Source: an uncultured Candidatus Rokubacteria bacterium
GTDB taxonomy: Bacteria > Methylomirabilota > Methylomirabilia > Rokubacteriales > DASRDR01
Length of the DNA stretch: 64,000 nt
Reading direction: 5' to 3'
NCBI GenBank assembly: GCA_963805625.1
Contig: CAWDVE010000017.1
Location: 224,001-288,000 of the forward strand
Shown: positions 11,096 through 48,397 of the stretch, one piece after another
Layout: each line of letters starts with the position of its first letter
Numbering within the stretch: the first letter of the stretch is position 1
Notes under the pieces: model-generated
Databases searched by the model: none
The model's input: the letters and a program-made list of their open reading frames with translations, nothing else
What the model was told of the DNA's origin: nothing
Program-made: the position numbers and the translations under genes

Positions 11096-12115
11096 CTAAC
11101 CGGCGAGAGACTCCCAGTCGCCCTCGGAGGCGTCGAGCGCGAGCGCGAGGCTTCCATTGGAGCCGGCGAAGACCGGGTCCTCCACCACGCGCACGGCGCC
11201 GCCGCCGTAGTCGGCGAGGGCCCGCTCCATGGCGGCGGCCAGGCCCGGAACCTGCGACCCGCCTCCCGCCAGGATGATGTTGTGGCGGACGCGCTCCTGG
11301 TACTCGGGCTCCACTCGCGCCAGGAGATCCGCCATCGTCTCCGTGACGGGCGCTACCAGGCTCTCGCACGCGCGGCGCATCTCGCTCGTGATGTCGATCT
11401 GCGTGGCCTTGGCGGCTTTCTGGACGGTGACGACGACGGGCCCCGGAGGCTCGCCGACGAAGCTCCACTTCTCCTTCCACTCCCGGACCATGTAGATGGA
11501 GAACTGGGCGTCGGGGTGCTTGGTCCGGACGAGCGTCATCAGCTGCTCGTCCACCGAATCCCCGGCGTTCGTGAGCGTCCGCTGATCTTCCTCGGTGGGG
11601 TAGCGGCCCCGCATGACGCAGAAGTCGGTCGTCCCGGCGCCGATGTCGACGATCATCGTGTGGAGCAGCGCGTCCATCCCGTAGGACACGGCGAACGGCT
11701 CGGACACGATCATCAGGGCGTCGGCAACCCCTTTGACGGCGTTCCGCAGGTTCTGCCGGCTCACGCGGAGCGCTTCCGCGGGCACGCCCACGACCGCGCG
11801 GATCGGCTGGCCCTCGCGCCCGCCGGCCAGCGAGATCAGGTGCCGCAGGAGCTCGCGCACCGCCAGCTCGTCCTGCTCCGATCCCTCCTTGATCAGGCCC
11901 CGCTCGAGGGGGCGGCGCAGATCGAGCATCGGCCGGCTGTCGAGGGCCTCCCGGCCGAAGAGGATGGGCTTCTTCACGAGGCGTCGGGCCACCATGTCAA
12001 CCGGCCACCCGACGTAGCTCTCGACCACGTGGCGGCCGCCGTTCGAGGCGGAGATCGAGCTGCGGGAGGTTCCCAGATCGATGCCGACGTGAAGGACATC
12101 GGTCTTCTTGGTCAT
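11096..12115 (-). CDS. MamK-like bacterial actin (actin/MreB superfamily)
   Basis: GIDLGTS, VGVPA, IVSEPFAVSYG, VDIGAGTTDFC, EDQRTLTNAG, PEYQERVRHNIILAGGGS, EDPVFAG; matches remembered MamK motifs better than MreB. Confidence 0.88.
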   Translation of the reverse strand: MTKKTDVLHVGIDLGTSRSSISASNGGRHVVESYVGWPVDMVARRLVKKPILFGREALDSRPMLDLRRPLERGLIKEGSEQDELAVRELLRHLISLAGGREGQPIRAVVGVPAEALRVSRQNLRNAVKGVADALMIVSEPFAVSYGMDALLHTMIVDIGAGTTDFCVMRGRYPTEEDQRTLTNAGDSVDEQLMTLVRTKHPDAQFSIYMVREWKEKWSFVGEPPGPVVVTVQKAAKATQIDITSEMRRACESLVAPVTETMADLLARVEPEYQERVRHNIILAGGGSQVPGLAAAMERALADYGGGAVRVVEDPVFAGSNGSLALALDASEGDWESLAG

Positions 12116-13099
12116 CTACTGGCTCCCTGGGGCCTGGCCCAGCGTGGCGACGCGGTTGCGAGCCTCCGCGTACGCGTGGATGCCGTGGAAGAGCGCGCGC
12201 GCGATGCGCTGGCGGTAGGCCGGGTCGGCGAGCCGGCCGGCCTCCTCGTCGTTCGACAGGCACGAGACCTCGGCGAGGATGCCGGGGCTCTCCGTGGCGA
12301 CGAGGACCAGGAACGGCGCACTGCGCACCCCCTTGTCCCGGATCGCGGGGTTCGTGTTGCCCAGGACGGTCACCAGCTCCTGCTGGACGACCTGGGCCAG
12401 CTTCCGTGACTCCGCCTGGCGGACATGGGCATACACGCCTTCGAGGAGCCGGCGGAAGTCGGCCAGATGATAGCCCGATTCGTGGTTCTCCTTGCCCGCA
12501 AGCTGTTCGGCGCGCGGGTCGTCGGCCGGGCCGAGATAGTACGTCTCGACGGCGTGGCACTCCCGTGACGGGACCGAGTTGACGTGGATCGACACGAACA
12601 GATCGGCCCGCTCGACGTTGGCCGTCTGAGCCCGCTCCCGGAGGGACACGAAAGTGTCGGCGTCCCGCGTCATGGCGACGTCGTACTTCACGCGCTTGAG
12701 GAGGGCCCGCACCTCCCGGGCGATCTCGAGCGTGATCTCCTTTTCCCACACGCCCTGGGCCCGGGCGCCGGAGTCGTTCCCGCCGTGTCCCGGATCCAGC
12801 ACGAGCTTCTTGACGCCGAGGGCCGCGGTCACAGGACCGATCGCCTTCGGCGCCCGGAAGGTCAGGACCGTGGGCGCCGTCGCCAGCACGGCCGCGCGGT
12901 CGGGCGCGCTCCCGGACAGGGGGTTGTAGGCGAGGAGCCCGAGCGTCGGGAGGGCGACGAGGAGGGTGGCCTGGATGGCCCCCCGCCGGACCCGGGTGCT
13001 GACGCGGAGCGGCGGCGGCGGGAGCCCGCGAATCGTGTCGACGTTCTCCCGGACGGCCCCCCGGAGGACCCGTCGCTTGAGCCGGTCGGATGGCACCAT
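12116..13099 (-). CDS. N-acetylmuramoyl-L-alanine amidase (Amidase_3) with an N-terminal membrane anchor
   Basis: LDPGHGG, EKEITL, SLRERAQTAN, FVSIHVN, ILAEVSCLSN; hydrophobic segment after about 40 basic residues. Confidence 0.9.
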   Translation of the reverse strand: MVPSDRLKRRVLRGAVRENVDTIRGLPPPPLRVSTRVRRGAIQATLLVALPTLGLLAYNPLSGSAPDRAAVLATAPTVLTFRAPKAIGPVTAALGVKKLVLDPGHGGNDSGARAQGVWEKEITLEIAREVRALLKRVKYDVAMTRDADTFVSLRERAQTANVERADLFVSIHVNSVPSRECHAVETYYLGPADDPRAEQLAGKENHESGYHLADFRRLLEGVYAHVRQAESRKLAQVVQQELVTVLGNTNPAIRDKGVRSAPFLVLVATESPGILAEVSCLSNDEEAGRLADPAYRQRIARALFHGIHAYAEARNRVATLGQAPGSQ

Positions 13100-13110: not shown

Positions 13111-14258
13111 CTAGAGCTCCAGCAGCCGTGCCACGCGTTCGCGGTGGAGCGTCGCGTCGCCGAACGCGACCTCCGAGCCCTTGGCGCGCTTGAAGTAGAG
13201 GTGCATGTCGTGCTCCCACGTGAAGCCGATGCCCCCGTGAACCTGGATCCCGTCGCCGGCGACCTTCCGGTAGGCGTCGGACACGAAGGCCTTGGCCATC
13301 GAGGCGGCCAGCATCGCGTCGGGCGCGTCCTGGTCGGCCGCCCACGCAGCATAGTAGGTGATGGACTTCGCGTTTTCGACGGCCACCAGCATGTCCGCGC
13401 ATCGGTGCTTGACCGCCTGGTAGGCTCCGATCGGCCGCCCGAAGGCGACGCGCACCTTCGCGTACTCGGTGGAGAGGTCCAGGACCTTCTGCGCCCCGCC
13501 GCACATCTCGGCGGAGAGGGCGACGGCGGCCCGGTCGAGCACGCGGGCCACCACCGGCCACCCCTGGTGGAGCGGCCCGAGAAGCGCATCAGGCCCGACC
13601 TCGACGCGCCGGAACGCGACCTCGGCGAGCTTCCGCGTCTGGTCCATCGTCGGCAGGAGGGTGGTGGTGACCCTCTTCCGATCCGCCGGCACTAGGAAGA
13701 GGCTCACGCCGTGCGCCGGGTCCTCCTTCGTCGCGCGCGCGGTCCGCGCGGCCACGACGAGGAGATCCGCCGTGTGCCCGTCGGGCACGAAGAGCTTCGT
13801 GCCCGAGAGGACGAAACCGCCGGCCTTTCCGGGCTTGGCGGCGACCTCGACCCCGGCGGCGTCCCAGCGGGCGCTCTCCTCGAGGAGCGCGAGAGTCGCA
13901 CGGGCGTCACCGGAGGCGATGCGGGGGAGCCATGCCTCCTTCTGGGCGTCCGAGCCCGCCTGGAGGATCGCGAGCCCGCCCAGGAGCACGGTCGAGAAGA
14001 ACGGCCCCGGCATGACGACGCGCCCCATCTCCTCGAGGACGACCGTGAGGTCGACGAGCCCCAGCCCTCCCCCCCGTGAGCCTCGGGATAGATCAGGCCG
14101 AGCCACCCGAGCTCCGCGAGCTTGCCCCAGAAGTCGTCGGTCGTGCCGACCGGATCGTCCATCATCCGGCGGACGAAGCCGGAGGGACACTCCTTCTCGA
14201 GGAAGCTCCGCGCCGTCTGGCGCAGGAGTTCCTGTTCCTGGCTGAATCCAAAGTCCAT
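13111..14258 (-). pseudogene. Acyl-CoA dehydrogenase (FadE27/PimD-like partner), frameshifted in a G7 run at ~14069-14075; likely sequencing error
   Basis: MDFGFSQEQELL...YPEAHGG continues in another frame as GLGLVDL...FGRPIGAYQAVKH...QVHGGIGFTWEH. Confidence 0.85.
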
Positions 14259-47797: not shown

Positions 47798-48397
47798 CTA
47801 GAACTTGATCTGCGGCGCCGCTTCGCTGCCCGGCGCGGCCTCGAAGAACGGCTTCTCCCGAAAGCCTCGGAAGGACGCCACGAGGCTGGTCGGGAAGCTC
47901 CGGACCGCGGTGTTGTAGGCGCGGACCGACTCGTTGAAGCGGCGCCGCTCGGCTGCCACCCGGTTCTCGATGCTCTCCAGCTGATTCTGGAGCGCCAGGA
48001 AATTCTGGTTGGACTTGAGCTCCGGGTAGCGCTCCACGGTCACCAGGAGACGGCTCAGGGCGCCGGTCAGCTGGTTCTGCGCCTCCTGGAATTTCCGGAG
48101 CAGCGCCGGGTCGTTCAGGACCTCGGGGGTGACCTTGATTCCCGCCACGCTCGCGCGTGCGCGGGTGACCTCCTCGAGGACGGTGCGCTCCTGGGCGGCG
48201 AAGCCCTTCACGGTTTCGACCAGATTCGGGATGAGATCGGCCCGCTGCTGGTAGACGGTCTGGACCTGGGCCCAACTCTCCTGCACGGCCTGGTCCTGGG
48301 CCACGAGGCCGTTGTTGACGGAGATCGCCCAGCCGAGGCCGACGATCACGACCAGCGCCATGACACCGAGGACGAGGAGTCCGGATTTCATGCGCAT
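47798..48397 (-). CDS. lemA: LemA family protein
   Basis: QRADLIPNLVETVKG, ERYPELKSNQNF, ENRVAAERRRFN. Confidence 0.93.
   Translation of the reverse strand: MRMKSGLLVLGVMALVVIVGLGWAISVNNGLVAQDQAVQESWAQVQTVYQQRADLIPNLVETVKGFAAQERTVLEEVTRARASVAGIKVTPEVLNDPALLRKFQEAQNQLTGALSRLLVTVERYPELKSNQNFLALQNQLESIENRVAAERRRFNESVRAYNTAVRSFPTSLVASFRGFREKPFFEAAPGSEAAPQIKF

Follow-up and report, generated by a model that had tools for sequence, protein, structure and literature searches.

The locus described here raises the question of what a MamK-like actin is doing beside a peptidoglycan amidase. The two genes lie on the minus strand of a 64,000-nucleotide stretch of DNA (the window), which is part of contig C17 (CAWDVE010000017.1) of an uncultured Candidatus Rokubacteria bacterium whose genome of 7.27 Mb is 99.9 % complete. 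The amidase open reading frame (ORF; 13099-12116, 327 amino acids) is followed by that of the actin (12115-11096, 339 amino acids), and the amidase TAG (12118-12116) directly abuts the actin ATG (12115), as had been noticed when the DNA was first read from its letters alone. That sequence-only reading had proposed a two-gene cytoskeletal module in which MamK, in a non-magnetic role, would localize wall hydrolysis through the amidase tail. The conserved, linked pair, carried by soil bacteria, stands, but the actin falls in a separate clade of MamK-like actins and the identification as MamK is not upheld. The elements of the locus are as follows.

13025..13084, minus strand: conserved N-terminal helix of the amidase (residues 6-25), predicted to be cytoplasmic, a candidate actin-docking motif (conservation; AlphaFold2, AF2)
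12926..12982, minus strand: predicted transmembrane helix of the amidase (residues 40-58) with a basic stretch before it (Kyte-Doolittle hydropathy, KD, 1.58 over 19 residues)
12170..12808, minus strand: Amidase_3 catalytic domain (residues 98-310; alignment to AmiA and 3NE8)
12422..12517, minus strand: regulatory insert with blocking and interaction helices (alignment to 8C2O; AF2 helix 195-208)
12116..13099, minus strand: predicted bitopic N-acetylmuramoyl-L-alanine amidase without an AMIN domain, 327 amino acids (Pfam Amidase_3, PDB matches)
12123..12128, minus strand: Shine-Dalgarno-like AGGGAG within the 3' end of the amidase gene, for the abutting actin start (-13 to -8 from the ATG, read from the sequence)
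11096..12115, minus strand: MamK-like actin of the amidase-linked clade, 339 amino acids (NCBIfam, PDB matches, tree, AF2 model)

Adjacency of the amidase and actin genes is far beyond chance. Of 21 loci from relatives, 20 have the amidase gene upstream in the same orientation, and the twenty-first ends at a contig edge, the amidase and the start of the actin gene being found on another contig of that genome. Among GTDB loci from Rokubacteria, Acidobacteriota and Binatia/delta-proteobacteria, a set that overlaps with the relatives, the amidase is upstream in 78 of 80, and in the two misses the contig stops 2 and 86 bp before the actin gene. Gaps between the genes are mostly -4 to +25 bp and extend up to ~210 bp (~90-210 bp in loci L175, L096 and L019). 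Within the phylum of our genome, matches to the MamK model and to the amidase subfamily, the latter at a threshold of 1e-68 that was chosen after the results had been seen, occur together in 26 of 251 genomes, and 225 have neither; a genome of the same genus (G004, 95 % complete) has neither actin nor amidase. An even draw of 351 Acidobacteriota genomes yielded 28 with the actin, each with the amidase upstream (28/28), and when the amidase matches were ranked the top 27 came from 27 of these 28 genomes. Of 251 genomes from a third phylum, ten have MamK-like genes; these are linked to the amidase in two, of which one is the seed genome, and unlinked in the other eight. The four amidase-less rows tested lie outside the amidase-linked clade. 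A deeper actin subclade, at ~51 % identity, is also amidase-linked, in genome G070 by way of a 19-base contig overlap. No third gene is common to the loci: once the actin cluster and that of the amidase (itself merged) are set aside, the next clusters of locus genes, formed by single linkage and not annotated, reach at most 35 of 85 loci. The sequence-only reading had named conservation of the gene pair as a check, and the pair is conserved across phyla.

The two proteins also share much of their history. Trees for 51 non-redundant amidase-actin pairs, in which kin are not independent of one another, gave strong amidase splits that recur in the actin tree in 11 of 14 cases and the reverse in 10 of 13, with one conflict. 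In the amidase tree as in the actin tree, two genomes of the Rokubacteria order fall with Binatia, which makes joint transfer of the two genes likely, though mis-binning is possible. A literature search, conducted mostly without subscription papers or supplements, found no description of a MamK-like actin-amidase pair. The two genes form a real and tightly co-inherited actin-amidase module that is apparently undescribed. Two partial amidase matches in another genome (G007:C11:3375-4121 and G007:C121:1-672) probably represent one gene split across contigs.

By sequence, the actin most resembles MamK. Its NCBIfam scores are 370.8 bits for MamK (NF040964; cut-off 400), 212.8 for BeeR (cut-off 530) and 65.8 for MreB (cut-off 293); the best PDB matches are MamK entries (5LJW/5JYG/5LJV; E 2.7e-77, with MreB at E 3e-12), and the closest named homologues are Rokubacteria/Methylomirabilota records of 95-98 % identity. 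The MamK-like motifs listed by the sequence-only reading are all present (SEPFAVSYG, DIGAGTTDFC, EDQRTLTNAG, PEYQERVRHNIILAGGGS and the C-terminal W334), except that the spacer from SEPF to YG has three residues and not two. Residues D13, G15 and T16 (phosphate-1), E139 (catalytic) and D157, G159 and G161 (phosphate-2) are invariant in all 109 paired homologues. The AF2 model has a mean predicted local distance difference test (pLDDT) score of 76.8, residues 35-71 being poor, and in both sequence and model 7 residues precede the first beta-strand and no membrane-binding helix is evident.

Placement in a tree argues against MamK itself. The tree, a quick IQ-TREE run with Shimodaira-Hasegawa-like approximate likelihood ratio test (SH-aLRT) support only and no bootstrap, was built on 116 rows taken from fetched loci and from representatives at 50 % identity; it excludes four long branches, 12 further amidase-linked rows, partial sequences and near-duplicates at 82 %. 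A branch with SH-aLRT support of 99 sets apart all 29 amidase-linked actins, together with one row without genomic context, P0125, which belongs to a Nitrospira-labelled cluster and is predicted to be amidase-linked. Outside it lie BeeR (96), MreB (100) and the named magnetosome MamK/Magnetospirillum branch (99), the last represented by only four named rows, with canonical AMB-1/MSR-1 MamK not among them. All seven rows labelled amidase-less also fall outside, a result with which a second tree agrees; two of the seven (L199 and L201) come from short contigs and their context is weakly known. In these trees, then, the amidase-linked actins are sister to other MamK-like actins, and because their branch is apart from magnetosome MamK, BeeR and MreB, the actin is not MamK itself; nor does it group with MreB, a placement that would have counted against the sequence-only reading. 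It shares with MamK the nucleotide-binding motifs and the C-terminal Trp, and differs in scoring below the family cut-off, in its separate branch, in the absence of magnetosome genes and in its fixed amidase partner. BeeR, from Verrucomicrobiota, is likewise a MamK-related actin of non-magnetotactic bacteria, described as of unknown function and, in the accessible part of the report, with no mention of an amidase (PMC11929497); it carries an N-terminal extension of 30-50 amino acids that our actin lacks, and the actin lies below the BeeR cut-off on a separate branch. Mad28, as the available text describes it (PMC10653835), is without the DxGxG and EP motifs, both of which are present here. Residues specific to the amidase-linked clade (G78, V86, L93, E114, R117, R124, L134, F165, T260, V276 and others) are offered as a lead only.

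The family cut-off is a poor guide to function in this part of the actin radiation. Members of the deep amidase-linked clade exceed it (431, 425, 418, 408 and 442 bits), and so do amidase-less actins outside magnetosome clusters, so that a score above it is no sign of magnetosome function. According to the part of the source available, mamK serves as a marker of magnetotactic bacteria in metagenomes (PMC13200544), and clade members above the curated cut-off could be misread as signs of magnetotaxis. Several other MamK-like genes were encountered. At L200:7965-9017 a gene with a MamK-model score of 489.6 has hemL, ATP synthase and two-component genes as neighbours, and none of the 16 ORFs scanned is a mam gene. 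Another MamK-like clade (L216-L222, from G731, G622, G663, G851, G699, G762 and G611) lies above the cut-off and has no amidase; its actin gene is downstream of a gene for a long coiled-coil-like protein, MamB is absent from G731, the one genome tested, and these actins may represent a further cytoskeletal module not yet described. At G819:C12:35725-38342 (L214/L224) two MamK-like genes in tandem (494 and 492 bits) have between them a small ORF that is membrane- and coiled-coil-like, in a genome without MamB above the cut-off. A well-supported MamK-like clade (P0135, P0136, P0139-P0141, P0144, P0147, P0148, P0152, P0154, P0159, P0160 and P0166) bears N-terminal extensions of ~190-900 amino acids, with no Pfam match in the extensions of the two scanned. 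Finally, P0193, a 768-amino-acid record named magnetosome MamK, is an FtsZ-MamK fusion, either real or a read-through artefact.

The partner is a well-preserved amidase. Pfam Amidase_3 (PF01520) matches residues 100-308 with 160.4 bits (cut-off 27; E 6e-47), and the best PDB matches are 3NE8, AmiA (8C2O) and AmiC (4BIN). The zinc ligands H105, E119 and H172 and the catalytic E277, reported as intact by the sequence-only reading, are found in 109 of 109 homologues. The autoinhibitory helices of the AmiA/B type are kept as well: in an alignment with Escherichia coli AmiA (8C2O; numbering of PMC10268282), E204 takes the position of the blocking-helix latch Glu167, and L218/L219/V222/Y223/V226 match the EnvC-binding L184/L185/V188/L189/L192. 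Position 204 is Glu in 105, Asp in two and Val in two of the 109 homologues. The Val residues belong to deep-clade amidases (L144 and L152, from G074 and G070), in which regulation may differ. The amidase is comparable with AmiA/AmiB/AmiC and their EnvC-type activators in its zinc ligands, catalytic Glu, latch Glu and interaction helix, and differs in having no AMIN domain, in an Asn that replaces AmiA Asp135 and in not being the housekeeping amidase of the genome; moreover, AmiA/B/C are soluble periplasmic enzymes, whereas ours has a predicted uncleaved anchor and a conserved cytoplasmic helix. From this alignment the amidase is likely inactive unless bound by a LytM-type partner, a requirement absent from the sequence-only reading, and because the autoinhibitory regulatory domain is present, positioning alone is probably not activating and a periplasmic activator is likely needed.

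The N-terminal region, in which the sequence-only reading had seen a basic segment before a single hydrophobic helix, does consist of a basic stretch of 39 residues followed by a hydrophobic segment at 40-58. In the AF2 model of the amidase a helix spans residues 4-23, and a disordered linker follows the hydrophobic helix to ~92. The tail motif is K-x-x-[LIM]-L-R-x-A-V-x-[ED]-N, with N19 in 105 of 109 homologues (the others being two gaps, one frameshift and one Asp) and K/R8 in 106 of 109. Mean identity over the 51 non-redundant pairs is 40 % for the tail, 19 % for the linker and transmembrane helix, 54 % for the catalytic domain and 65 % for the actin. The motif was found in none of 287 candidates among longer proteins, which is weak evidence. 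For the family, the transmembrane helix has a mean KD17 of 2.18 and a median of six Lys/Arg just before it; by crude regular expressions, not SignalP, 2 of 105 homologues have an A-x-A site after the hydrophobic helix, and neither a lipobox (0/105; one loose match, in L103, with a wider window) nor a conserved twin-Arg Tat motif (0/105) was detected. By the positive-inside rule, basic residues mark the cytoplasmic side, and a conserved residue such as N19 is unusual in the n-region of a signal peptide. The rarity of A-x-A, the absence of lipobox and Tat motifs and the Lys/Arg before the helix, read with the positive-inside rule, suggest that the amidase N-terminus is an uncleaved anchor with a cytoplasmic tail. 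The sequence-only reading would have been refuted by an N-terminus that is cleaved off as a signal peptide and makes no contact with the actin; these observations speak to the first part only, and favour an uncleaved anchor.

What might such a pair do? We lean, if only slightly, towards the interpretation that the filament binds the amidase tail and places an activator-dependent amidase at chosen wall sites. The co-inherited two-gene unit would supply an actin that polymerizes with ATP into a cytoplasmic filament, and this filament is predicted to bind the conserved N-terminal helix of the amidase, a contact that we infer from conservation and by analogy and through which the filament would at the same time be attached to the membrane. 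Given a cytoplasmic tail and a catalytic domain on the outer side, a LytM/M23-type activator would release the blocking helix and the amidase would cut the wall locally; the output would be accessory thinning or shaping of the wall on top of MreB- and FtsZ-based growth. In the MreB Rod complex and in FtsA-FtsN an actin-fold polymer is joined to wall enzymes through the cytoplasmic tail of a bitopic protein, and the bacterial actins known to steer wall enzymes, MreB and FtsA, do so with synthases. Here the actin is neither MreB nor FtsA, and it is paired with a hydrolase, the unit containing no synthase. If the proposal is true, an actin coupled to its own hydrolase would represent a novel means of placing wall cleavage, and a first candidate function would be available for a non-magnetic MamK-like clade. 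A bolder form of the idea, which we consider rather unlikely, is that the pair is a third actin-guided wall machine beside MreB and FtsA, in which an ATP-driven, dynamic MamK-type filament would carry the amidase through a short helical adaptor, draw a cleavage line from inside without recourse to the Rod complex or the FtsZ ring, and move between phyla as a two-gene cassette; there would then be a wall-shaping role inside the actin radiation that includes magnetosome MamK.

The best works-like model for the pair would be bactofilin-LmdC, as described in the accessible text of PMC10945521. In Hyphomonas neptunium LmdC binds the bactofilin through a 38-residue cytoplasmic tail, and the two genes are adjacent; BacA-LmdC of H. 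neptunium and Rhodospirillum rubrum likewise combines adjacent genes for a polymer and a bitopic hydrolase with a short and conserved N-terminal tail of ~38-40 residues in the cytoplasm. However, the BacA polymer is a nucleotide-independent bactofilin and ours an actin-fold ATPase, LmdC is an M23 endopeptidase and ours an Amidase_3 enzyme with an autoinhibitory domain, the LmdC tail is a beta-hairpin and the amidase tail a predicted helix, and tail binding has been shown for LmdC but is only predicted for the amidase (PMC10945521). Because neither component is shared, the actin-amidase pair would work like bactofilin-LmdC without being a member of that system.

Several observations weigh against our interpretation, in addition to the post hoc threshold and the kinship among pairs noted above. 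The fixed threshold of 1e-68 fails as a family test in Acidobacteriota, where 190 of 351 match, mostly with tail-less proteins. The spread of the module is patchy (3/159 in neighbouring family f2, 28/351 in Acidobacteriota), so it is dispensable, and no phenotype is known for it. Frameshifted copies occur in G014, G206 and L078 (the amidase in L078), perhaps as assembly errors. As regards the tail, its pLDDT of 63-72 in the AF2 model amounts to moderate confidence, its mean hydrophobic moment of 0.37 is barely higher than that of shuffled sequences (0.29 +/- 0.14), and the pattern of L12, A15 and N19 is also compatible with a self-pairing coiled coil.

This last point leads to an explanation that we regard as unlikely, namely that the two proteins act in the same pathway without direct contact, the tail forming a short homodimeric coiled coil or binding FtsA, FtsZ or MreB, and the actin acting indirectly. 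Asn-containing zippers resemble the heptad-like pattern of the tail (L12/A15/N19/T22), which has Asn at a core-like position, and the weak amphipathic moment would fit too. However, a hidden Markov model of the tail has a single match in the genome, the amidase gene (91,071 six-frame stretches; next E 1.7), tail-reaching proteins among the Acidobacteriota matches listed occur only in actin-bearing genomes, and in the deep clade tail and actin diverge jointly, the subclade tail RxRLLQGVxEQNL shifting together with the deep actin subclade. The polarity could also be reversed, with the amidase mainly as the membrane and wall anchor of the filament, where it would grip the peptidoglycan and trim it processively, while the filament would position some other cargo such as an inclusion, vesicle or organelle. 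MamK acts with MamJ/MamY in cargo positioning, the actin is sister to other MamK-like actins and, having no evident membrane-binding helix, would need an anchor; we nevertheless find this improbable, because the invariant catalytic residues and the conserved regulatory insert indicate regulated cutting, and no cargo gene is common to the loci, given the same unannotated clusters.

Simple co-regulation or hitch-hiking would require no physical link at all: the genes would be co-expressed and co-transferred, and the N-terminus would be an unusually long signal peptide. Adjacency by itself is indeed no demonstration of binding, and the gap is loose in the three loci named above. We judge this quite improbable, since in different phyla, over a range of 51-98 % actin identity, the two genes are strictly gained and lost together, and in view of the rarity of A-x-A, the lack of a Tat motif and the near-invariance of N19. 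Least probable by far, and largely refuted by the absence of Mam genes above cut-off and by the separate clade, is that the actin is a magnetosome MamK left from a lost or unassembled magnetosome island, a view for which the MamK model as best match and the high scores of deep-clade members might be cited. In this 99.9 % complete genome MamA, MamB, MamM and MamQ were not above cut-off (best scores 110.5/200, 145.9/350, 113.1/350 and 103.6/250, respectively) and MamI had no match, with models for which there was no magnetotactic positive control, and the claim that the pair lies outside a magnetosome island is supported by this search. MamB was likewise not above cut-off in ten other genomes tested, eight of them amidase-linked, and the clade is apart from the named magnetosome MamKs. 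A metagenome scan with P0153 as query, aimed at true magnetosome loci, gave five loci, of which the sole long one was without mam genes.

The window, too, is free of mam genes, as the sequence-only reading had said; the sole mam-like match in it is a weak one to the MamQ model at ~47804-48358 (G000:C17:271804-272358; 90.7 bits, cut-off 250), presumably an ordinary LemA-family gene, and another lies at C17:203249. Elsewhere in the genome, a 16-kb run at G000:C10:63400-79700 contains very long ORFs with tetratricopeptide-like repeats and a MamA-model match below cut-off. The same reading had noted that mreC and mreD are not in the window, and a complete mreB-mreC-mreD-pbp2-rodA run is in fact on contig C24. 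The genome has five M23 genes, one directly after ftsX on C21 and none linked to the pair, and a longer AmiC-like amidase (labelled by eye) on C12. Because Rod, FtsX and AmiC-type genes are present separately, the pair is an accessory unit.

As to expression, a purine-rich stretch like the AGGGAG before the actin start is found in most f1 relatives, and from this and the abutting codons we infer translational coupling of amidase and actin. In four RNA-labelled runs, contigs of relatives (88-99 % alike) touch both genes, and two of them (X1 and X6) span the junction; they make up small shares, DNA carry-over is possible and a single transcript is not demonstrable from contigs. A promoter scan of the locus found no promoter, terminator-like sites were at chance level (2 against 1.0 +/- 1.1 expected), and plasmid and phage sequences gave no match. 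The flanks are a NUDIX hydrolase gene and acyl-CoA dehydrogenase genes. In the acyl-CoA dehydrogenase gene upstream of the amidase (13111-14258) a frameshift at a C-run near 14063 splits the ORF, and since relatives' contigs carry one extra base there, it is probably an assembly error.

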